Positions 6,315 through 36,722 of a stretch of 64,000 bases of DNA are shown piece by piece. The stretch lies in the NCBI GenBank assembly GCA_016700415.1, contig CP065018.1, positions 2,389,894-2,453,893 of the forward strand. The letters are read 5' to 3'. Source of the DNA: Flavobacteriales bacterium. GTDB lineage: Bacteria > Bacteroidota > Bacteroidia > Flavobacteriales_F > PHOS-HE28. The first letter of the stretch is position 1, and each line of letters opens with the position of its first letter. Position numbers and translations under genes: made by a program. Under the pieces are notes generated by a model, which saw nothing but the letters and a program-made list of their open reading frames with translations, was not told where the DNA came from and did no database searches.

Positions 6315-7333
6315 CCTGCCGTTTCTGCCAAGGTCTGCTGCCAGCGCCACGCATCACGCAAAGCATCCGCCAAGGTGAGTTCCGTTTGCCATCCGAGGAC
6401 CTTCCGGCTCTTGGTGGTGTCCGCGTACATGGCCACCACGTCGCCCGGCCTGCGGGGACCGATCACATAGGGAACCTTCACTCCGTTCTCCTGCTCGAAG
6501 GTGTTCACCGCTTCCAGCACGGTGTTGCCAGTGCCCGTTCCCAAGTTGAACACGTCGTAGACCGGTGCTTCCTGTTTCTCGATCCACCGCAAGGCCCGTA
6601 CATGCGCTTTGGCCAAGTCCACCACATGGATGTAGTCGCGGATGCAGGAGCCGTCCCGTGTGGGGTAATCGTCCCCGAACACCGTGAGCTTTTCGCGAAG
6701 GCCCGCAGCGGCCTGCGTGATGAAGGGGACGAGGTTGTTCGGCACGCCGATCGGCAGCTCCCCGATGATCCCGGACGGATGCGCCCCGATGGGATTGAAA
6801 TAACGCAACATCACCACGCGCAAGGCAGGGTCGGCGGCGGAAGCGTCCCGGAGCAATTGCTCGCAGACCACCTTGCTGTAGCCGTACGGTGATGCCGCCA
6901 CGCCCGTGCGGGAGGTCTCGGTCACCGGCAGTTGATCGGTGTCGCCATAAACTGTGCAAGAGGATGAGAAAACGATGTTCTTCACTTCGTGCTTCTCCAT
7001 CACCCGTAGTAGAGTGACCAGCGAACCGATGTTGTTCGCATAGTACTTCAACGGATCCCGCACGCTTTCGCCCACGGCCTTGTCCGCCGCGAAGTGGATC
7101 ACGCTTGCCGGCCGTTCCGCCGCGAACACTTTTTCCAGCGCCTCAGCGCCGGCACAATCAATGCGATGGATCCGCAAGGAGCGGCCCAAAATGGCTTCCA
7201 GGCCCCGCAGCACACGCTCGTCGCTGTTACGAAGATCATCGACAATGACGGGCTCGAAGCCGGCCTCCACCAGCTCCACGCACGTATGCGAACCGATGAA
7301 GCCCGCCCCCCCCGTAACGATCACCTTTTCCAT
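6308..7333 (-). CDS. galE: UDP-glucose 4-epimerase
   Basis: Starts at internal Met: MEKVIVTGGAGFIGSHTCVEL… (Rossmann GxxGxxG), with the YxxxK region downstream. The N-terminal 24 aa of the track ORF are treated as an extension. Confidence 0.9.
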   Translation of the reverse strand: MEKVIVTGGAGFIGSHTCVELVEAGFEPVIVDDLRNSDERVLRGLEAILGRSLRIHRIDCAGAEALEKVFAAERPASVIHFAADKAVGESVRDPLKYYANNIGSLVTLLRVMEKHEVKNIVFSSSCTVYGDTDQLPVTETSRTGVAASPYGYSKVVCEQLLRDASAADPALRVVMLRYFNPIGAHPSGIIGELPIGVPNNLVPFITQAAAGLREKLTVFGDDYPTRDGSCIRDYIHVVDLAKAHVRALRWIEKQEAPVYDVFNLGTGTGNTVLEAVNTFEQENGVKVPYVIGPRRPGDVVAMYADTTKSRKVLGWQTELTLADALRDAWRWQQTLAETAGQ

Positions 7334-10308: not shown

Positions 10309-10710
10309 TCACTTAACCTCCTGACAAAGCTCCACCAACACCCCGTTGGCGCTCTTCGGATGCACGAAGCACACCAACTTATTGTCCGCCCCGCGCTTGG
10401 GTTCGTCGTTAAGCAGAACGAACCCTTCAGCTTTCAGTCGCAGCATCTCGGCGCGGATATCGGCCACTTCGAAAGCGATATGGTGGATGCCTTCACCGCG
10501 CTTTTCAATGGCTTTGGCGATCGGGCCTTCCGCCCGGGTGCTTTCCAGCAACTCGATCTTGTTCGGCCCTACTTGGAAGAACGAGGTGATGACGCCTTCG
10601 CTGGCAACCTCCTCGCGTTTATAGCTGGGGCTTCCCAGCAAGGCGGCATAGATCTCCTCGGCCTTGGCCAGGTCTTTCACGGCGATACCGATGTGCTCAA
10701 TACGGATCAT
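10309..10710 (-). CDS. mce: methylmalonyl-CoA epimerase (glyoxalase/VOC family)
   Basis: 133 aa: MIRIEHIGIAVKDL…GEGIHHIAFEVADI…FVHPKSANGVLVEL, a typical MCE. Confidence 0.85.
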   Translation of the reverse strand: MIRIEHIGIAVKDLAKAEEIYAALLGSPSYKREEVASEGVITSFFQVGPNKIELLESTRAEGPIAKAIEKRGEGIHHIAFEVADIRAEMLRLKAEGFVLLNDEPKRGADNKLVCFVHPKSANGVLVELCQEVK

Positions 10711-10793
10711 GGTGGAAAGTTAGGCCGGACAGTTCTGCCGTTCAGCAAAAGACCCCGCCGAAGCGAGGTCCTGCATTCCGATCAAAGTCACCT

Positions 10794-11591
10794 TTATCGC
10801 TTGACGAAGGTGTCCCCCATCTTGTTGTCGTAGTTCAGGTAGTAGAGCCCGCGCTTCAGGTCGCTCACATCAACATCCGTGGAATAGCCGCGCTTCACGA
10901 TGTTGCCGAACTGGTCGTAGATCTCATAAAGGCTGCCCGCGCTGAGATGGATCTGCTCCGCCTTCTTGTCGTAGGCCCAGGTCACCACAGGAACCGAAGG
11001 GTCGGTGTAGGCCGCGTTCTCACTGAAGCGCGAACGCTTGGACATGTCGGTCTGCTTCACCCGGTAGATGTTCTCTCCGCTGTGGGGCACCACCTTGAAG
11101 GAATACGAATGTTCACCGGGGGTCCCGTTACCCATCACTTCCCCTACCCGGATCCACTTGTTCCAGCGCTTCTCTTGCACCACAAAGGGCAGCTCACCTG
11201 TCTCATTGGAGGTGGTCCACGAATAGGTGCCTTCCGTGGAAACACCCTGCTTCACGATATCAAAGGTGCTTTTCGGCTTGAGCACCTCCGGGTTCAACAC
11301 CTTGGGGGTGCAACCGTCCTTGTGCATGATCTTGATCATCACCTTGTCGCCCACCTTGAACCCGAAGTTGGCCAGATCGATCTCGAAAGCACTGGAATTG
11401 ATCTCATCGGTGGCCACCTTGTCGTTCACCGTCACCTGATAGACACAAAAGCCCACGCCAGCTTCGGAAAACGGATTTTGGACGAAGATGTTCTTGCCCT
11501 GGTAATTGCCGTCCAGCACGATGGTGCCTGCCTGCGCGAACAGACCGACGAGCAAGGCACCAAGGAGAAAGAGATGTCGAAGCTTCAGCAT
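10794..11591 (-). CDS. secreted hypothetical protein with T9SS type-A C-terminal sorting domain
   Basis: A signal peptide (MLKLRHLFLLGALLVGLFAQAG) is followed by a C-terminal ~80 aa with the Por-secretion tail pattern (…GLYYLNYDNKMGDTFVKR). Confidence 0.7.
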   Translation of the reverse strand: MLKLRHLFLLGALLVGLFAQAGTIVLDGNYQGKNIFVQNPFSEAGVGFCVYQVTVNDKVATDEINSSAFEIDLANFGFKVGDKVMIKIMHKDGCTPKVLNPEVLKPKSTFDIVKQGVSTEGTYSWTTSNETGELPFVVQEKRWNKWIRVGEVMGNGTPGEHSYSFKVVPHSGENIYRVKQTDMSKRSRFSENAAYTDPSVPVVTWAYDKKAEQIHLSAGSLYEIYDQFGNIVKRGYSTDVDVSDLKRGLYYLNYDNKMGDTFVKR

Positions 11592-27891: not shown

Positions 27892-28593
27892 TCAACCGGC
27901 CGGCACCACCAGCCGGAACCCTTTCCCATGCACATTGGCGACCTCCACCTCGGGATCGTCCGCCACATACTTGCGCAATTTGGCGATGTACACGTCCATG
28001 CTCCTGCCGTTGAAGTAGTTATCGTCCCCCCACACGGTGCGCAACGCTGTGGACCGCTCCAGCACGGTGTTGGCGTTCTCGCAGAGCAGGCGCAATAGGT
28101 CGTTCTCCTTCGTGGTGAGCCTGCGCTCTCCTTCCGGGCCCGTGAGCAGTTGCTTGCGCGCATCGAACGTGTATCGCCCCAGATTGAAGGTGGTATTGCG
28201 TTCGGGCAGCGGTTCCACGCCACGCGCCCGGCGGAGCACCGCCGCGATGCGCAACAACAGCTCCTCCATGCTGAAAGGCTTGGTGAGGTAGTCGTCCGCC
28301 CCGGACTCGAACCCGGTGATGGTATCCTTCCGCATGTTCTTGGCGGTGAGGAAAATGATGGGGGTTTCCGTATCGTTCTTCCGGATCTCCCGCGCCAAGG
28401 TGAACCCGTCCTTCAGGGGCATCATCACGTCCAGCAGCAACAGGTCGAACTTGGACTTCTTGTAAGCCGCCAGTCCTTGGTCGCCGTCCACGCAGAGCTC
28501 CACCTCGTAGTCCTTTGCCTTCAGGTATTGGGCGAGCAAGGTGCCCAAGTTGGGGTCATCCTCGCACAGCAGCAGTCTCGTGTTGTTCTCCAT
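27892..28593 (-). CDS. OmpR-family response regulator transcription factor
   Basis: Start MENNTRLLLCEDDPNLGTLL… (receiver; phospho-acceptor Asp in DLLLLDVMMP), followed by a winged-helix trans_reg_C domain (…SMDVYIAKLRKYV…). Confidence 0.9.
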   Translation of the reverse strand: MENNTRLLLCEDDPNLGTLLAQYLKAKDYEVELCVDGDQGLAAYKKSKFDLLLLDVMMPLKDGFTLAREIRKNDTETPIIFLTAKNMRKDTITGFESGADDYLTKPFSMEELLLRIAAVLRRARGVEPLPERNTTFNLGRYTFDARKQLLTGPEGERRLTTKENDLLRLLCENANTVLERSTALRTVWGDDNYFNGRSMDVYIAKLRKYVADDPEVEVANVHGKGFRLVVPAG

Positions 28594-30004
28594 GTTCAAA
28601 AGGTATGGTGATGATGAACCGGCTTCCGGTCCCTTGGTCATTGCCTTCGGGTCCGCTCTCCACGCGGATGGTGCCGCCATGTCTTTCCACTACGGACTTC
28701 ACATAGCTGAGGCCCAACCCGAAGCCCTTCACATTATGCACGTTGCCGGTGGGCACGCGGTAAAGACGATCGAAGACCTTGCGTTGTTCGCTGCGCGGGA
28801 TGCCGATACCATTATCGCGGACCTCGACGGTGAGGGCCTGGGCGTCGCTGCGGGTGGTGATGTGGATGATGGGCGAAACGATGCAGTATTTCACCGCGTT
28901 GTCGATGAGGTTGTAGAAGATGCTTGTGAGGTGGGTGCGGTCGCCCCGCACATGCGCCAGTTCGGCGGTGCGCGCAAAGTTGATGCGCCCACCGCGTTTC
29001 TCCGCCTGCAGCGAGCTGTTGCGCACCACCTCGGCCAGCAGGGCGTGCATGTCCACGTCGGTGATGCGCAGCCGCATGCCGCCCTGGTCGGTCACCGCGC
29101 TCTGCAGCACGCTTTCCACCAGCATGCCCAAGCGCTTGTTCTCGTCCCGGATCATGTTCGTGAACAAGCGCACCTGCGCGGGGTCCTTGGGGATCCCGGG
29201 GTCGTTCAGTGCCTCACAGGCCAAGGATATGGTGCTGATGGGCGTCTTCAGCTCGTGGGTCAGGTTGTTCACCAAGTCGTTCTTGATGTCGCCCAAGCGC
29301 TTCTGCCGAAGCATGGCGCGCACCGTGAACCCGAAAATGGCGGCCACCATGAGCAGAAAAATGGTGGAAGTCACCAGCATGGGCCACAAGCTGCGCAAAA
29401 GCATGGAGGGGCGGGACGGGACGCTCACGTGCAACCACCAGCCGTTCCCCGCGGACCGCTCCTGCGGCCAATCGTTCCGGAAAAGCTGGGTACGGTGGGG
29501 GCTGCTGCGCACCAAATTGCTGTCCGCCGCGTCGTTCAAGCTGAGGAGCACGGCACTTCCCCCTTCCTCGAACACGCCGTATTCGTAGGTGCAATGTATA
29601 TGGCGCAACCGCAGCTCCTCGGTGATCAGCGAATCCAGCAGCCGCGGATCGATGCGCTCGTGGATATCCCGGAACATGCCCGCACTAAGGATCCCCCGGA
29701 GCAATTCGTTCAAGGTGTCCTTGTTCAAGAGGCCCGGCCCCGCCGAACTGTCACGGTCGGCAAGACCTTGGTCGATGTGCAGGTCCCCTCCTTTGACGTC
29801 CGCAGGCAGGGTGCGCAAATTCTGGCGTGCCTCGGCCCGTTCCACACGGTCGCTCACGGCCACCAAGGCATTGTCGATACCTTCATTGAACTGCGCATCC
29901 TTCAAGGCCAGGGTGTCGCTCACCCATTTGGCCTGGATCAGGACCAGCCCGAGCAAGGCCACGCTGATGGCCACGATCAAGGCAGTGATCGTCCGTTTTT
30001 CCAT
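28556..30004 (-). CDS. sensor histidine kinase
   Basis: 482 aa with an N-terminal transmembrane helix, an extracytoplasmic region and a second transmembrane segment. The HisKA H-box (LTHELKTPISTI) and HATPase_c N/G boxes (DNAVKY; GFGLGLSYV) follow. It overlaps the response-regulator start by ~38 nt. Confidence 0.9.
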   Translation of the reverse strand: MEKRTITALIVAISVALLGLVLIQAKWVSDTLALKDAQFNEGIDNALVAVSDRVERAEARQNLRTLPADVKGGDLHIDQGLADRDSSAGPGLLNKDTLNELLRGILSAGMFRDIHERIDPRLLDSLITEELRLRHIHCTYEYGVFEEGGSAVLLSLNDAADSNLVRSSPHRTQLFRNDWPQERSAGNGWWLHVSVPSRPSMLLRSLWPMLVTSTIFLLMVAAIFGFTVRAMLRQKRLGDIKNDLVNNLTHELKTPISTISLACEALNDPGIPKDPAQVRLFTNMIRDENKRLGMLVESVLQSAVTDQGGMRLRITDVDMHALLAEVVRNSSLQAEKRGGRINFARTAELAHVRGDRTHLTSIFYNLIDNAVKYCIVSPIIHITTRSDAQALTVEVRDNGIGIPRSEQRKVFDRLYRVPTGNVHNVKGFGLGLSYVKSVVERHGGTIRVESGPEGNDQGTGSRFIITIPFEHGEQHETAAVRG

Positions 30005-30145
30005 GGAAGGTTGAAAGCTACCCGATGCGCGCGCTACGGCGATGACCGGTTAACGATGTTTAACCGGATATGTGCACGGGCAAAGGAAATGAGGATGGAG
30101 CCCGGTCGGCACGCGCTGTGTGCGACCAGCTACTTTTGCACCATC

Positions 30146-31588
30146 ATGGAGCAGGTCCTCAACTACATCAACGGCGAATTGCGACAGGCATTAGGTGGCG
30201 GGTGGTTGGAGGGCCATGCCCCGGCGGAAGGCAAGGTATATGCACAGATCGCGGACAGCGACGCGAAGGACGTGGACCTCGCCGTGGAAGCCGCCGAAAT
30301 TGCAATGCCCGCATGGACGGCGCTGGGCAGGCAAGGGCGCCACGATGCGATCATGCGCGTGGCCGATCTCGTAGAGCGCGACTTGGAGCTCTTCGCCCGG
30401 GCCGAAAGCCGGGACAATGGCAAGCCCGTCAGCTTGGCCCGTACGGTCGACATTCCGCGCGCTATCGCCAACCTCCGCTTTTTCGCCACGGCCATCCTGC
30501 ACTGGGGCAGCGAGGCGCACATTACCGATGATGTGGCGGTGAACTATACGGACCGGCAGCCTACCGGTGTTGCGGGATGCATCAGTCCATGGAACCTGCC
30601 CTTGTACCTGTTCACCTGGAAGATCGCTCCTGCATTGGCGGCAGGTTGCACGGTGGTGGCGAAACCATCGGAGATCACGCCGTACACCACTTGGATGTTG
30701 GCCGAGCGCTGCATCGAGGCCGGTTTTCCCCCGGGGGTGCTCAACATCGTTCAGGGCACCGGCCCCAAGGTCGGCGCTGCCATCACGGCACATCCGGGCA
30801 TCCCGGCGATATCCTTTACCGGTGGCACCGCGACCGGCGCCCGCATCGCTTCCGTCGCCGCACCGATGTTCAAGAAGTTGAGCTTGGAGCTGGGCGGAAA
30901 GAACGCAGTGCTGGTCTTCGCGGACTGTGACTTCGAACGGATGCTCTCCGAGACCGTGCGATCCTCATTCAGCAACCAGGGCCAGATCTGCCTGTGCGGT
31001 TCGCGGATCTTGGTGGAACGCTCCATCTATGAGCGTTTTCGGGAAGCTTTCGTCCAACGGGTGAAAGCGCTTCGCGTAGGCGACCCCTCTCAAAAGAACA
31101 CGGATATCGGAGCCGTGGTGAGCGGGCCGCACCTGCAAAAAGTGCTTGGCCATATCGCCCTGGCCAAAGAGGAAGGAGGGCACATCCTGTGCGGCGGTGA
31201 GCAGGTGGTGCTTGAAGCCCCGTTGGCGGAAGGCTGGTACTTGGCGCCCACGGTGATCGAGGGCTTGGGCCCGCAATGCCGCACCAATCAGGAGGAGATC
31301 TTTGGACCGGTGGTCACCATCCAACCCTTTGACACGGAAGAGGAGGCCTTGGACATGGCCAATGGCACACCTTACGGCCTGGCCAGCACGCTGTGGACCT
31401 CGGACGGCACCCGCATGCACCGCATGGCGCGCCTGTTGAAAAGCGGGATCGTATGGGTGAACTGCTGGATGCTCCGGGACTTGCGCACGCCCTTTGGCGG
31501 GATGAAGCAAAGCGGCGTGGGCCGTGAAGGCGGCGTAGAGGCGCTGCGGTTCTTTACCGAAGCGAAGAACGTGTGCATCAAGTTATAG
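30146..31588 (+). CDS. NAD-dependent aldehyde dehydrogenase (2-hydroxy/2-aminomuconate-semialdehyde dehydrogenase-like)
   Basis: Start MEQVLNYINGEL… (alternative ATG at 30089). It carries the ALDH catalytic ELGGKN and QGQICLCGSR (Cys) motifs. The 5' 1.6 kb of the track ORF 28541..31588 is an antisense shadow of the HK gene. Confidence 0.88.
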   Translation: MEQVLNYINGELRQALGGGWLEGHAPAEGKVYAQIADSDAKDVDLAVEAAEIAMPAWTALGRQGRHDAIMRVADLVERDLELFARAESRDNGKPVSLARTVDIPRAIANLRFFATAILHWGSEAHITDDVAVNYTDRQPTGVAGCISPWNLPLYLFTWKIAPALAAGCTVVAKPSEITPYTTWMLAERCIEAGFPPGVLNIVQGTGPKVGAAITAHPGIPAISFTGGTATGARIASVAAPMFKKLSLELGGKNAVLVFADCDFERMLSETVRSSFSNQGQICLCGSRILVERSIYERFREAFVQRVKALRVGDPSQKNTDIGAVVSGPHLQKVLGHIALAKEEGGHILCGGEQVVLEAPLAEGWYLAPTVIEGLGPQCRTNQEEIFGPVVTIQPFDTEEEALDMANGTPYGLASTLWTSDGTRMHRMARLLKSGIVWVNCWMLRDLRTPFGGMKQSGVGREGGVEALRFFTEAKNVCIKL

Positions 31589-31828
31589 GGGCCGTAGGTC
31601 CGCGGAAGGCTCCTCCGGAAGGGACCTCTCCGGCGATCGGTGCTTCATGCCATTGGTGAAGAACCAGCCAAAGCGCAGGTCGAACCATTCCTCGAACTCG
31701 ATGAGGCTACGGCGAAGGATATGGAGCATTTCACGCATCTGGAAGGTGGTACGAAGCCAACGCGGGAAGGGTTCCAAATAGTGTACCGGCCTGTGGTGGG
31801 CTAATGCACGGGCAGGGAAGCTCACCAA
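31583..31828 (-). CDS. small hypothetical protein (possible operon partner of GHKL ATPase gene)
   Basis: 81-aa ORF whose start overlaps the stop of the upstream GHKL gene by 7 nt. Its segment …REMLHILRRSLIEFEEWFDLRFGWFFTNG looks non-repetitive, but coding status is unverified. Confidence 0.3.
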   Translation of the reverse strand: MVSFPARALAHHRPVHYLEPFPRWLRTTFQMREMLHILRRSLIEFEEWFDLRFGWFFTNGMKHRSPERSLPEEPSADLRPL

Positions 31829-32772
31829 GGAACGTCCACAGTGGCGAGCACCTTTTCGCCCTTTGGCCGGTCCTCCACGCGAAGTGTGCCCTCTACATCG
31901 GAGAGCCGGGCCAGCAACTTCCCCACCGCTCTCCGGTCGATCATCCCGCCCATGGAAAAAATTGTGCGGTCCCCGCCATGGAGCACGAACAACACAGGGG
32001 CTGCCAGATCTAAGGTGGACCGGACCACCTCAACTGTCCGCTTCAACCTATCACTTCGCTTGAGGAGGTCTTCTCCCCCTTCGGCAGGTCTTTCGTTCAG
32101 GGCCAGCCCCATGAGAACATGTTCAATTTCCGTGGTCCAGATTCCTACGTGAAAGAGAAGGACCCGGTGTTCCAGCACCAGCCGATGCAACGGACCATCC
32201 AGTTGCAATGCGTCCGCACCGTCGGTGGCCCCCACATCCAAGGAAATGGCGAACAGGTCATGCCCGTCCTCGATGGGGTTGAACGTCCACGACGCCCCAC
32301 CTCCCGTGCGCCGCACCATTTCGATCAGTCCCAGGCCTGCACCCCTTGTTCCGGGCTTGCTCGTCCGCTGGATCCCTTCCAAATACAGTTCCTTCAATTC
32401 CGTATTGTCCCGGCCTTGAAGGTCGGCGAGGTCCTTATCCAGCTTCAGCGCTTGGGAGCGGGTGACCAAGTTGCAGGCAAAGACCTGTTGCCCGGTGGCA
32501 TGACAACGCAAGAGGAACATGCTTTGACCTTCGCCCCGATCGGGCATGGACAGCGGCCGAGCGCGATGACGCACGATGTTCTGGTAGGCCTCCACCATCA
32601 CATACCCCAAGCGGCCCTTGACCGGCACGGTCCCCTCCCATCCGTTGAGCACAGCCTCGCCTAGCTCGATCAGGCGGGGAGAATGCTCGTCCGGAAAAAA
32701 GCCGCTGTATCCAAAAATGCAGCGATCCTCGCGCAATGCTTCGATAAGAGAATGGGCAAACTGGATGTCCAT
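31822..32772 (-). CDS. GHKL-type ATPase domain protein (anti-sigma/SiaB-like kinase fold) with unknown C-terminal domain
   Basis: Start MDIQFAHSLIEAL…. An N-box-like EAYQNIVRH and a G-box-like GAGLGLIEMV are present, followed by ~150 aa with no recognisable motif. It is divergent from ppk1 with a 61-nt shared upstream region. Confidence 0.5.
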   Translation of the reverse strand: MDIQFAHSLIEALREDRCIFGYSGFFPDEHSPRLIELGEAVLNGWEGTVPVKGRLGYVMVEAYQNIVRHRARPLSMPDRGEGQSMFLLRCHATGQQVFACNLVTRSQALKLDKDLADLQGRDNTELKELYLEGIQRTSKPGTRGAGLGLIEMVRRTGGGASWTFNPIEDGHDLFAISLDVGATDGADALQLDGPLHRLVLEHRVLLFHVGIWTTEIEHVLMGLALNERPAEGGEDLLKRSDRLKRTVEVVRSTLDLAAPVLFVLHGGDRTIFSMGGMIDRRAVGKLLARLSDVEGTLRVEDRPKGEKVLATVDVPW

Positions 32773-32833
32773 GCGCGATAAGCCCGGAATAAAGCGAAGG
32801 TAACGGGGAAAGCCGGGACTATTTTCGGCACCG

Positions 32834-35500
32834 ATGATCACACAGAGCCTGATCGAGAAAGCACGGCTGCACATCCGCCGTTTCTTCTCGAAGCACATGC
32901 CGGGGCAAATGCAGTTCCACGACCTGGAGCACACCCTTACCGTGGCACGCAGTGCGAAGGAGATCGGACGTGCGTCCGGAATGGGTGGGCAGGAGCTCAT
33001 GCTGGTGGAGCTTGCCGCCCTGTTCCATGATACGGGCTATGCCGCGGCCTATGCCGGACATGAGGAGGAAAGTGCCAAACTGGCCACGACGTGGATGCTC
33101 TCCCACGATGTGGACCTTCGCGATGTAAAAGCGGTCTCCTCTCTCATCCTGGCCACACGGGTCGATCATGTGGCCCGCGGTCTGCCTCAGCGCGTGCTGC
33201 GCGATGCCGACTCCGCAAAGGCCGGACAGGCTGATTTTTTGGAAAAGGGCGAACGCCTGCGGGCTGAACTGACGGCCTGTTCAGGAAAAAAGGTTTCCGG
33301 TACCGCTTGGACCCAAGAGAACTTGGCATACTTGGAAAAACACCGGTTCGCCACCCCGTATGCACGACAGCGGTTCGGGAAACAGAAGGAGATCAACCTT
33401 GCCCTACTTCGCCGCGCCGTTGCGAAAAGATCCGGGCAAAGGGCGATCTCGCCCACGCTTCCCGAGCCGTTCATGGACCGCGATCTGAGCTGGCTCGCCT
33501 TTAACGCGCGGGTACTTCAGGAAGCACAGGACCCCGGCGTGCCCTTGCTGGAACGGTTGAAATTCGTGGCGATCCACAGCAGCAACCTCGATGAGTTCTA
33601 CCGTGTGCGTGTGGCCCAGCTCAGCGGCCTGCGGAAATTGGGCAAGTGGAACCGCTCGGCCCTGGGTGTTCCGCCGGGGAAGCATATCGAGCTGATCAAT
33701 CAGGTCGCCTTGAAGCAACAGGCCGCTCTGGGGACAGTCTACCGGGGCGTCCTCATTCCCGAGCTCCGGGCCCATGGTATCCGTTTTCGGAACGAGGGTC
33801 AGCTGTCCATTGTTCAGCGCCAGTTCGTACTGGACCACTTCAAGAAGCATGTGACCCCGTTGCTTCGGGCGGTCACCATGCGGGAGACCAAGCCACCGTT
33901 CATCGAGGACCGGCGGCTCTATCTCGTGCTTTCCCTCTCCAAAAAAGACCGGATCAAAAAGCGCCTGGTGTTGGTGAACGTGCCATCGGCCGATCTGGGG
34001 CGTTTCATCACGCTGCCTTCGCGCGCGGGAAGCACGGACCTGCTGTACTTGGATGATGCGATCCGCTTGGGCGCGCCGGCCCATTTCAAGGGATGGACAG
34101 TGAAGGCTTGCCATGCGATCAAGCTATCACGTGACGCGGAACTTTACTTGGATGAGGAGTTCACCGAGGACGTCGTGGACAAGGTGCGCCGCAGCCTGCG
34201 GAAGCGCAGCACGGGCGTACCTGCCCGTTTTCTCTATGACCGGGCCATGCCCAAGGCCCTGCTGGAACAGGTGCGCCGTCTGCTGGAGGTGAAGAAGAGC
34301 GACATGCTCGAGGGCGGACGCTACCACAACCTCAGCGACCTGATGCAGCTGCCCGTCATCGGGCATCCGGAGCTGCGGGAAAAGCCGCTGTTACCCATCG
34401 CTCATCCGGCGATCACAGGCACGGACGGTTTTCGGGCCATGCGTTCCGGGGACATCCTGCTGCACTTCCCCTACCATTCGTTCAAGCCGGTGATAAGCCT
34501 GCTTGCCCACGCGGCAAGAGACCCCAAGGTGGATCGCATCGCGATCACGTTGTACCGTGTTGCATCCAAGTCGCTCGTCTGTGAAGCGTTGGCTGAGGCC
34601 GCCCGCAATGGAAAACAAGTGGACGTGATCATAGAGGTACAAGCGCGGTTCGATGAGGGCAACAACCTGTTCTGGGCCTCGGTGCTCAACGATGCCGGTG
34701 CCCGGGTCAGCTACGGCCTGCCCGGGCTTAAGGTGCATTGCAAACTGTTGCTCATTGAACGAAGGGAGGCGAAAGGCCCGAAGCACTATGCCTACTTGGG
34801 CACAGGCAATTTCAATGAGCAGACCGCACGGATCTATTCCGACATGGCCTTGTTGACGACGCGCAAAACGATCACCGACGATGTGCGGGAGGTGTTCAGC
34901 AAGTTGTTGGCCGGTGAAGCTCCCGGACCGACGAAGATCATTTCCACTTCTCCGGACCACCTGCGCGGTTTTCTGGAGCGCGCCATCGACCGGGAGATCG
35001 AGCAGGCATTTCTTGGAAAACCCGCGTCGATCCTGCTGAAATTGAACAGCTTGGAGGACAAGCCCTTGATCCGTAAGCTCTACGATGCCGACAGGGCAGG
35101 CGTGCAGGTGCGCCTGATCGTGCGCGGCATCTGCTGCTTAGTTCCGGGCGTTCCGCAACACAGCGGGACCATTGAGGCGATCAGTATCGTGGACCGCTTC
35201 CTCGAGCACGCACGGGCTTATGTGTTCCACAACCTCGGCCGGCCCACGGTACACCTGGCCTCGGCCGATTGGATGGAACGGAACATGGACCGCCGGGTAG
35301 AGGCCGCATTCCCGGTCGTGGACGAAAAGCTGAAAGCCGAGGTCATCCAATTCCTGGAACTGGAGTGGAAGGACAATGTGAAGGCGAGGATCATCGACAA
35401 GGCACAGACCAACCCGTACCGGCCTGGCAAGAAGGGCGCACGGAAAGTGCGGTCGCAGGCGGCTTGGTATGAGCGCTTGAAAGCCGCGGCAAAGCAATGA
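32834..35500 (+). CDS. ppk1: polyphosphate kinase 1 fused to an N-terminal HD-domain phosphohydrolase module
   Basis: 888 aa. Residues ~1-213 carry an HD motif set (FHDLEH…LFHDTGY…H…D). From M214 (MDRDLSWLAFNARVLQEAQD…) the sequence is colinear with full-length PPK1 (~675 aa), including the conserved His-containing and PLD-like C-terminal regions. There is no stop between the modules. Confidence 0.9.
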   Translation: MITQSLIEKARLHIRRFFSKHMPGQMQFHDLEHTLTVARSAKEIGRASGMGGQELMLVELAALFHDTGYAAAYAGHEEESAKLATTWMLSHDVDLRDVKAVSSLILATRVDHVARGLPQRVLRDADSAKAGQADFLEKGERLRAELTACSGKKVSGTAWTQENLAYLEKHRFATPYARQRFGKQKEINLALLRRAVAKRSGQRAISPTLPEPFMDRDLSWLAFNARVLQEAQDPGVPLLERLKFVAIHSSNLDEFYRVRVAQLSGLRKLGKWNRSALGVPPGKHIELINQVALKQQAALGTVYRGVLIPELRAHGIRFRNEGQLSIVQRQFVLDHFKKHVTPLLRAVTMRETKPPFIEDRRLYLVLSLSKKDRIKKRLVLVNVPSADLGRFITLPSRAGSTDLLYLDDAIRLGAPAHFKGWTVKACHAIKLSRDAELYLDEEFTEDVVDKVRRSLRKRSTGVPARFLYDRAMPKALLEQVRRLLEVKKSDMLEGGRYHNLSDLMQLPVIGHPELREKPLLPIAHPAITGTDGFRAMRSGDILLHFPYHSFKPVISLLAHAARDPKVDRIAITLYRVASKSLVCEALAEAARNGKQVDVIIEVQARFDEGNNLFWASVLNDAGARVSYGLPGLKVHCKLLLIERREAKGPKHYAYLGTGNFNEQTARIYSDMALLTTRKTITDDVREVFSKLLAGEAPGPTKIISTSPDHLRGFLERAIDREIEQAFLGKPASILLKLNSLEDKPLIRKLYDADRAGVQVRLIVRGICCLVPGVPQHSGTIEAISIVDRFLEHARAYVFHNLGRPTVHLASADWMERNMDRRVEAAFPVVDEKLKAEVIQFLELEWKDNVKARIIDKAQTNPYRPGKKGARKVRSQAAWYERLKAAAKQ

Positions 35501-35589
35501 CCCGTCAGACCGCAGGGTCCTCTTCGAGTGATCTTGCTGAAGCGTTAAGTATCGTGCCTCAGGGTCCCGAAGCGGAGACCGCTTAGCGA

Positions 35590-35626
35590 ACAAAAAAGAA
35601 AGGCGATCCCGTGGGACCGCCTTTCC
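35590..35626 (-). terminator. rho-independent terminator of tRNA-Ala
   Basis: On the minus strand, immediately 3' of the tRNA, lies a near-perfect 12-bp stem (AAAGGCGGTCCC / GGGATCGCCTTT) followed by TTTCTTTTTTGTT. Confidence 0.7.
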
Positions 35627-35627
35627 G

Positions 35628-35701
<74 letters not shown>

Positions 35702-35807
35702 ATACCGATTTCAAATATACATCCGAAATCGAGGCGGCAAATGTAGGTAAAACACCCATTCCTTAAACCATGTCAGTAGGAGCTGGTGGTCCACAGCCAT
35801 TCCTTCG

Positions 35808-36719
35808 TTGCAAGTACGGATGTTTCCTTTGTCCATGCCTTTGCCCGAATCCCTCGGCCTGCATCTCGAAACCTTGCTCACAGATCGGCAAGGGCACCCG
35901 GTAACTATCCGGGCGGCGCACCCCGTGCATGGAGGCAGTGTGAACGATGCCTTCCGCTTGGATACGGACCTCGGCCCGCTCTTCCTGAAGACCAACTCTG
36001 CCGATCAGTTCCCCAGCCTTTTCAACAGCGAGGCGCATGGCCTGCACCTCCTCCGGCAGGCTGGTGATCTGCGCGTTCCTGCGTTCATCGCCCAGGGTGA
36101 ATGTGATGACACGACTTTCCTGCTGCTGGAATACGTTCCCCCGGCAGAAGAGGATGCCGGTTTCCAGACCCGCTTCGGGAGGAAGCTGGCCCGGCTGCAT
36201 CGCCATACGCAGGCCACCTTCGGGCTGGACCGGGACAATCATGTCGGTCTGTTACCGCAAGTGAACACGCCGAACCTCGATTGGGCCGAATTCCTGGTCC
36301 ATTGCCGCTTCATGCCCTTGGTAAAAATGGCCCGTGACAACAAACGCATCCACACCGGGGATGTGCTCCGCTTTGAGCGGCTTTATGGCCAGTTGCCGTC
36401 CTTGTTCCCCTCCGAGCTCCCCGCGCTGCTGCACGGCGACCTGTGGAAGAACAACTACCTCGCTGCTGCGGACGGTGAAGCGGTGCTGATCGACCCGGCA
36501 GTGTATTACGGCCACCGCGAAATGGACATCGCCATGACCCGGCTTTTTGGGGGCTTTGACCGGTTTTTTTATGCAGCCTACCAAGAGGAGGAACCCTTGG
36601 CGCCGGGTTGGGAGGATCGCATGGACCTCTGCAACCTGTATCCGCTGCTCGTACACCTCAACCTGTTCGGCGGCAGCTATGCGGAGCGGTTGGGGTCGGT
36701 GCTCCGGAAATACGTGTGA
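35808..36719 (+). CDS. fructosamine kinase family protein
   Basis: 303 aa: …HGGSVNDAFRL…LLHGDLWKNNYL…DPAVYYGHREMDIAMT…, the FN3K/aminoglycoside-phosphotransferase-like signature. Confidence 0.85.
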   Translation: MQVRMFPLSMPLPESLGLHLETLLTDRQGHPVTIRAAHPVHGGSVNDAFRLDTDLGPLFLKTNSADQFPSLFNSEAHGLHLLRQAGDLRVPAFIAQGECDDTTFLLLEYVPPAEEDAGFQTRFGRKLARLHRHTQATFGLDRDNHVGLLPQVNTPNLDWAEFLVHCRFMPLVKMARDNKRIHTGDVLRFERLYGQLPSLFPSELPALLHGDLWKNNYLAAADGEAVLIDPAVYYGHREMDIAMTRLFGGFDRFFYAAYQEEEPLAPGWEDRMDLCNLYPLLVHLNLFGGSYAERLGSVLRKYV

Positions 36720-36722
36720 ACG

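Follow-up and report, generated by a model that had tools for sequence, protein, structure and literature searches.

A conserved fusion of an N-terminal HD-domain module to polyphosphate kinase 1 in uncultured Flavobacteriales

Introduction

Polyphosphate kinase 1 (PPK1) is the main bacterial synthase of polyphosphate (polyP) and a target for drug development and biotechnology, and the control of its activity is poorly understood. Phosphorus removal in activated sludge is driven by polyP cycling. In PPK1 of Escherichia coli the N domain contributes to nucleotide binding, and the PPK1 chains of solved structure, which include those of E. coli (PDB 1XDO/1XDP) and Porphyromonas gingivalis (2O8R), are 683–705 amino acids (aa) long. 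The subject of this report is a ppk gene found in a 64 000 nucleotide (nt) stretch of DNA from a Flavobacteriales bacterium (GenBank accession number CP065018.1, positions 2 389 894 to 2 453 893; hereafter the window), whose 888-aa product shares the four PPK1 domains with the E. coli and P. gingivalis enzymes in aa 213–888 but adds to them an N-terminal extension of about 212 aa that bears an HD-domain module. We refer to this protein as HD-PPK1.

Two groups of HD-domain proteins provide points of comparison. In the long RelA/SpoT homologues (RSH), an N-terminal HD hydrolase precedes the synthetase. HD-PPK1 has a logic in common with these enzymes, namely an N-terminal HD hydrolase followed in one chain by the synthase of a phosphoanhydride-rich product. 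The RSH HD domain has been noted previously (PMC8177086). The second group is the YpgQ/YedJ clade, whose two namesakes are (d)NTP pyrophosphohydrolases that depend on Mn and have low catalytic efficiency, and whose plant member AtCN-PDE1 is a cGMP phosphodiesterase (PMC8177086, PMC6692503).

Architecture and distribution of HD-PPK1

The features of the HD-PPK1 gene, in window coordinates, are as follows.

32834–35500, + strand: HD-PPK1 fusion gene, a single open reading frame (ORF) with an ATG start, 888 codons plus a stop codon and no in-frame stop inside
32834–33418, + strand: HD module, aa 1–195, all-helical, containing the metal-binding and catalytic motif residues
33419–33469, + strand: inter-domain linker, aa 196–212, with low identity, near-fixed spacing and a predicted local distance difference test (pLDDT) score below 50 at aa 200–207
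33470–35497, + strand: complete PPK1 (N, head, C1 and C2 domains), as defined by TIGR03705 and the alignment with 1XDO

The Pfam HD model (PF01966) scored 33.8 bits over aa 31–127, where the gathering cut-off is 22 (E 4.4e-8). The four Pfam PPK1 domains, PP_kinase_N (aa 213–318), PP_kinase (aa 328–506), PP_kinase_C_1 (aa 533–692) and PP_kinase_C (aa 705–875), all scored well beyond their gathering scores, and the NCBIfam model for polyphosphate kinase 1 (TIGR03705) covered aa 213–880 with 705.4 bits against a cut-off of 465.85. The original prediction, which had proposed an 888-aa ppk1 reading frame at 32834–35500 with the HD and PPK1 parts fused in frame and no intervening stop, was thus correct according to the ORF listing, as one ORF holds both sets of domains. 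The HD motif set that it described is also present (H29-D30-x2-H33, H65-D66 and D124-x-D126), in a region that passes the curated cut-off of an HD profile.

In principle, an error in sequencing or assembly could have joined an HD gene to an adjacent ppk1 gene and so given the appearance of a fusion, or PPK1 could be started separately at M214, which sits exactly at the canonical PPK1 start. This explanation is barely credible, and the comparative sequence data effectively refute it. The identical 888-aa protein occurs in 107 blocks of a public assembly collection and was read on 23 contigs, among them ENA assemblies made with MEGAHIT and with SPAdes, a JGI metagenome and three NCBI metagenome-assembled genomes (MAGs). 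Independent short-read and long-read assemblies both yield it, which excludes a frameshift or missed stop in the window, and the splitting error that the original prediction had suggested looking for was therefore not present.

A search with the full-length protein listed 120 clusters at 90% identity. These relatives were 55–100% identical to HD-PPK1 over 97–100% of the query and had lengths of 871–922 aa, with a single outlier of 1273 aa, so that all 120 have a length sufficient for an HD module. Pfam matches to both HD and PPK1 were recorded for 119 of them, and in the remaining one (P0056) the HD motifs are visible in the alignment. Where a source name was given, it was ‘polyphosphate kinase 1 [Flavobacteriales bacterium]’. 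A scan with the HD-module alignment of one genome per GTDB species recovered 204 relatives, and the best 80 loci were analysed. All 80 came from MAGs of uncultured Flavobacteriales or Bacteroidota, and many of the genomes that carry the fusion originate, according to their record titles, from activated or wastewater sludge. A single stop-to-stop ORF spans both HD and PPK1 at 78 of these loci. The N-terminal extension, about which the original prediction had asked whether it was shared among Bacteroidota or confined to one lineage, is lineage-specific.

One of the two exceptions (L086) is a locus cut by the end of its contig. In the other (L029), the only genome of the 80 whose HD and PPK1 parts do not share a reading frame, the break is due to one additional G within the linker. 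The downstream frame has no ATG ahead of the PPK1 N domain. An indel error is a more likely cause than a natural split. The additional G lies within ‘ctggtcGgatgag’ at bases 6569–6582 of this locus (MFD04651.bin.2.152).

An alignment of 43 HD-PPK1 orthologues (alignment A1) was used to examine the start of the PPK1 portion. Position 214 is Met in 14 of the 43 and Phe in 21, and 25 of them have no Met anywhere in aa 186–235. As M214 is not conserved and there is often no Met nearby, PPK1 in this clade is made as a fused protein, and separate translation from M214 was ruled out.

The PPK1 portion

The PPK1 half aligns end to end with E. coli PPK1 (1XDO), residues 8–682 of which correspond to aa 215–884 of HD-PPK1 (E 3e-152), consistent with the earlier placement of the canonical PPK1 N-terminus near M214. 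H635, in the motif GLKVHCK, is aligned with the His of GLKIHAK in the E. coli enzyme, which is the autophosphorylated H435; a deposited mutant structure (9uri) has Q at this phospho-histidine position. H792, in FLEHAR, is aligned with the second active-site histidine, H592, in the E. coli sequence YLEHDR. Both H635 and H792 are invariant in the 43 orthologues and, judging by this conservation, the PPK1 half should make polyP from ATP in the usual way.

One residue that differs is the equivalent of H454, which older mutagenesis work on E. coli PPK1 reportedly found to be essential. It is Tyr in the HD-PPK1 clade (Y654, bases 34793–34795) and Leu in the P. gingivalis enzyme (2o8r), indicating that H454 is not a universal PPK1 requirement.

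The HD module

The residues that make up the metal-binding motif of the HD superfamily, H29/H33, H65-D66 and D124, are invariant in all 43 orthologues. The full motif of the module is H29-x3-H33, H65-D66, H76-E77, T108, D124-x-D126, E145 and H170. When PDB was searched with a profile of the module, the best matches were to Lin1889 (3b57, E 6e-9), 2pq7 (E 1e-7) and BH2835 (3dto, E 2e-6), with weaker matches to YqeK (2o08, E 5e-3) and YpgQ (5dqv, E 0.019). An AlphaFold2 model of the HD module alone (pLDDT 92.5) has the all-alpha HD fold, and its best Foldseek matches in PDB were 2pq7, 3b57, YpgQ, 2pjq, 3dto and 2qgs. The HD module is therefore a self-contained HD metallo-phosphohydrolase domain with a fold like that of YpgQ/YedJ and the class I phosphodiesterases (PDEs). 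The likeness to YfbR-type 5′-nucleotidases that had been suggested from the motifs was not borne out, as no YfbR-type Pfam family matched at E values up to 1. A YfbR-type nucleotidase was also rejected on the structural side, with no YfbR chain found among the PDB sequence matches or the best 50–60 fold matches.

Proteins of the YpgQ/YedJ type (5DQV and 3GW7, and the structural-genomics entries 2PQ7, 3B57, 3DTO and 2PJQ) are 14–25% identical to the HD module. Unlike them, the HD module is fused to PPK1 rather than free-standing and has the additional invariant residues H76-E77, T108, E145, W159, H170, T174 and N188, which place it in a separate family. Since YpgQ/YedJ and AtCN-PDE1 differ in activity, even the nearest characterised relatives do not fix the substrate of the HD module. 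In HD phosphatases, a conserved Arg ahead of the first metal-binding His is pivotal (PMC8177086). R15 and R16 are conserved in 91% and 95%, respectively, of the fused clade, and R15 is found in just 18% of the paralogues described below. In the profile alignment R15 falls opposite an Arg of YpgQ and is a putative counterpart of the catalytic Arg. Three residues ahead of H29, the orthologues have Met or Leu.

The catalytic domains of class I cyclic-nucleotide PDEs (PDE2, 4, 5, 7, 8 and 9, and RhoPDE) are about 11–16% identical to the HD module, which is about 60% of their size. The corresponding Pfam model, PDEase_I (PF00233), did not match the HD module at E ≤ 1, and its matches to two paralogues were at chance level (E 0.04–0.06). 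The likeness to these enzymes is at the level of the fold only.

Mean identity in alignment A1 was 56–58% for the HD module (aa 1–195), 62–64% for the PPK1 part and 18–20% for aa 196–212. In 36 of the 43 orthologues the spacing from L192 to R216 is 23 ± 1 residues, and the linker is therefore variable in sequence but nearly fixed in length. The ratio of nonsynonymous to synonymous substitution (dN/dS) was calculated by the Nei-Gojobori method against the two closest species. The HD module gave 0.225 and 0.154 and PPK1 gave 0.105, values that indicate purifying selection on both halves. The AlphaFold2 model of the full-length protein had a pLDDT of 88.8 and a predicted template modelling (pTM) score of 0.88, low confidence being confined to linker residues 200–207 and a loop spanning aa 436–444. 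For a chain of 888 residues, this pTM suggests that the HD module is positioned with some confidence relative to PPK1 in the model.

Relatives of the HD module

A phmmer search with aa 1–213 against 1.84 billion representative proteins gave 3005 matches, and the best 150 were examined. HD-PPK1 accounted for one full-length representative at the 50% level (P0155, 896 aa) and a few fragments, such as P0154 (HD and PP_kinase_N). About 80 of the 150 were free-standing proteins of 185–240 aa and about 49 were proteins of 340–480 aa. In all six of the latter that were scanned, a PycTM domain (PF18967) comes after the HD module, and the three HD-PycTM proteins that were scanned with PADLOC all matched the Pycsar PycTM and CBASS 2TM effector models. 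In P0219, the HD module precedes a class III nucleotide cyclase domain. Family members with fusions of these kinds were noted among P0014, P0156, P0158, P0162–P0164, P0203 and P0219. This large HD family seemingly has no name and no characterised member, and a full-text search for literature on the DUF5706/HD-PycTM family, with most subscription journals outside its coverage, gave no relevant result.

The HD-PycTM proteins (PycTM being the former DUF5706) and the free-standing proteins of about 200 aa, from Bacteroidota and others, are 26–37% identical to the HD module over its whole length, the nearest family members lacking PPK1 being about 37% identical. They have the same invariant residues as HD-PPK1, but their partner is a PycTM/2TM membrane effector or there is none. 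The fused clade is invariant at H29, H33, H65, D66, G68, H76, E77, T108, D124 and D126, and likewise at E145, W159, H170, T174 and N188, all of which are 80–100% conserved in 129 paralogues; the fused HD module thus keeps the complete catalytic signature of the family. A further set of residues, R15, R16, R39, E59, K129, Q132, D134, R180 and Q184, is invariant or nearly so specifically in the fused clade. With the exception of D134, all of these are lacking from the HD-PycTM and free-standing paralogues, and the position of K129 is His in most of them. These residues could reflect a changed specificity, a polyanion-binding surface or a contact with PPK1. No ppk, ppx or recurring partner was found in the gene neighbourhoods of five paralogues (P0013, P0017, P0024, P0014 and P0020).

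Gene neighbourhood

The features surrounding the HD-PPK1 gene are as follows.

27895–31585: RprY-like regulator, histidine kinase and aldehyde dehydrogenase genes
31825–32772, − strand: gene for a SiaB-family protein kinase (DUF6272), 316 aa, divergent neighbour
32773–32833, no strand: divergent intergenic region of 61 bp between ppk and the SiaB-family kinase gene
35597–35626, − strand: terminator-like hairpin between ppk and the tRNA-Ala gene
35627–35700, − strand: tRNA-Ala (GGC), about 130 bp past the ppk stop codon

The N-terminal 180 residues of the neighbouring kinase matched Pfam DUF6272 (79.9 bits) and, over aa 9–178, NCBIfam NF038262 (87.5 bits, with the cut-off at 85), and a profile match was found to PDB entry 6kko (E 9e-16). 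The SiaB equivalog model NF038264 was below threshold (37.6 against 225), and nothing was found for the C-terminal half in Pfam or in PDB sequence searches. A gene for this kinase adjoins HD-PPK1, always in divergent orientation, in 77 of the 80 species loci, and the gap between the two start codons in these 77 genomes has a median of 76 bp (range 49–395). Two of the three loci without it have less than 800 bp of upstream contig. The 193 detectable homologues of the kinase are from Flavobacteriales MAGs where named and appear to be restricted to the HD-PPK1 clade; two distant ones that were looked up (38–40% identical) are also head to head with HD-PPK1. No match to a sigma-70-type promoter was found in the 61-bp intergenic region. 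The divergent SiaB-family kinase is a likely co-regulated partner of HD-PPK1 and possibly a dedicated regulator of it.

Further upstream, the aldehyde dehydrogenase gene is syntenic in 74 of the 80 loci, and the genes for the RprY-like regulator and its histidine kinase in 57 and 60, respectively. The response regulator scored 339.9 bits on the RprY-like model, just under the equivalog cut-off. PhoBR, which would have provided a link to phosphate sensing, was considered as an identity for this two-component system and rejected, the PhoB score being 174.6 bits against a cut-off of 270. On the downstream side, a gene of the fructosamine-kinase family is conserved in just 36 of the 80 loci. Ten large ORFs elsewhere in the window included no polyP genes and encode unrelated housekeeping or secreted proteins; SufB/D, RpoN, alpha-2-macroglobulin, type IX secretion system cargo, pyruvate kinase and FabF were among the products.

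The window is G+C-rich and long ORFs overrun the true genes. A 1015-aa ORF (28541–31588, + strand) encloses the 497-aa aldehyde dehydrogenase, and a 392-aa ORF on the minus strand (31822–33000) overlaps the start of ppk by 167 nt, the gene calls setting its start at 32772. Comparison of bases 35500–35836 with bases 10667–11003 of an ENA contig that is identical elsewhere (L001) revealed a 1-nt indel in the intergenic stretch past ppk, and the downstream gene ends at 36719 and not at 36720 as predicted from the offset to that contig.

Possible roles of the HD module

HD-PPK1 is a single polypeptide that probably has two catalytic units, and it is the PPK1 orthologue of its clade of Flavobacteriales, all of them uncultured. 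As for what the HD module does, we tentatively favour hydrolysis of a nucleotide-type phosphoanhydride or phosphodiester, for example NTP or NDP to NMP, or a cyclic or other signalling nucleotide, though this reading falls somewhat short of an even chance. The HD module would be an active metallo-hydrolase tethered beside the nucleotide-binding N domain of PPK1, where it could clear away or convert a nucleotide by which the reversible reaction of PPK1 is driven or inhibited. Alternatively, it may degrade a signalling nucleotide that controls PPK1. Either way, polyP synthesis would be coupled to the nucleotides available locally or to a signal carried by a nucleotide. A nucleotide theme runs through the activities of YpgQ/YedJ and AtCN-PDE1 and through the paralogues, which are fused to PycTM/2TM nucleotide-activated effectors and in one case to a cyclase.

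Several points weigh against this role. The substrate cannot be read from the HD sequence, and YpgQ, the only biochemically characterised bacterial relative, is a weak sequence match (E 0.019) whose own true substrate is uncertain because of its low catalytic efficiency (PMC8177086). A pyrophosphohydrolase that destroys ATP is not obviously useful beside a kinase that consumes it. The link to cyclic nucleotides would rest on the partner domains of paralogues that are just about 30–37% identical, and the five paralogue neighbourhoods without ppk or ppx indicate that the HD family as a whole is not a polyP family.

A less probable role, which still deserves consideration, is that of a polyphosphatase or polyP-end-processing unit, which would make HD-PPK1 a bifunctional synthase/hydrolase like Rel/SpoT that replaces or supplements PPX. 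The order of an N-terminal HD followed by a synthase is the same as in the long RSH enzymes, the invariant basic residues of the fused clade (R15, R16, R39, K129 and R180) could bind a polyanion, and two free-standing paralogues scored 25.1 and 26.9 bits on Pfam Ppx-GppA_III, against a cut-off of 27.3. However, the HD module in the window had no match to Ppx-GppA_III at E ≤ 1, and the matches to PPX rank under those to YpgQ and the PDEs and cover just about 130 residues. Domain III of PPX is, moreover, not the catalytic domain, and hydrolysis of inorganic polyP by an HD-domain enzyme is not known to us.

It is rather unlikely that the module is mainly regulatory or structural, acting as a nucleotide or second-messenger sensor or as a dimerization unit that gates PPK1, possibly under the control of the SiaB-family kinase. 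An N-terminal position is typical for sensor domains, and the HD modules of the paralogues take the place of a ligand-sensing domain ahead of the PycTM/2TM effectors. The conserved linker length and the presence of the divergent kinase gene in 77 of 80 genomes also fit such a role, as does the finding that characterized YpgQ-type HD proteins are homodimeric (PMC8177086). Against it, dN/dS is low across the whole HD module, and all of the putative metal ligands and catalytic residues are invariant in the 43 orthologues, whereas degenerate sensor HD domains usually lose them. It is also a long shot, if a slightly longer one, that HD-PPK1 works as a polyP synthase–hydrolase switch, in which the HD module would break polyP down or else de-cap or trim its nucleotide-linked end, with the SiaB-family kinase selecting between the two opposing activities through phosphorylation or partner switching. 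If this were true, a clade of activated-sludge Flavobacteriales would have a new, PPX-independent form of polyP cycling.

Hydrolysis of (p)ppGpp or another alarmone, which would link the stringent response to polyP synthesis, is improbable. HD hydrolases of (p)ppGpp exist (SpoT, Mesh1 and the small alarmone hydrolases) and in E. coli polyP has an established link to (p)ppGpp, but the alarmone-hydrolase matches rank well under YpgQ and the PDEs, and the RelA/SpoT-type HD family (HD_4) is not among the Pfam matches at E values up to 1. Hydrolysis of a nucleotide beside the PPK1 N domain is the role that we tentatively put forward.

Conclusions

Both halves of HD-PPK1 come from known superfamilies. 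Their fusion is a conserved architecture that is apparently undescribed, as no description of it was found in full-text literature searches, which left most subscription journals outside their coverage. Hundreds of copies in the sequence databases are labelled simply ‘polyphosphate kinase 1’. The finding amounts to a clade-wide replacement of canonical PPK1 by an HD-bearing enzyme whose gene has a dedicated kinase gene beside it.

The architecture itself is solid; a functional coupling of the two activities, such as the nucleotide/polyP turnover at which the original prediction hinted, is a plausible proposal. If the activity of the HD module is unrelated to that of PPK1, HD-PPK1 is just a lineage-specific domain fusion hidden under the ‘polyphosphate kinase 1’ label. 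If the HD module acts on the nucleotides of PPK1, on a signalling nucleotide or on polyP, the enzyme would contain a built-in device for control or turnover that can be tested with recombinant protein, and it would provide the first physiological context for a large, uncharacterised HD family.

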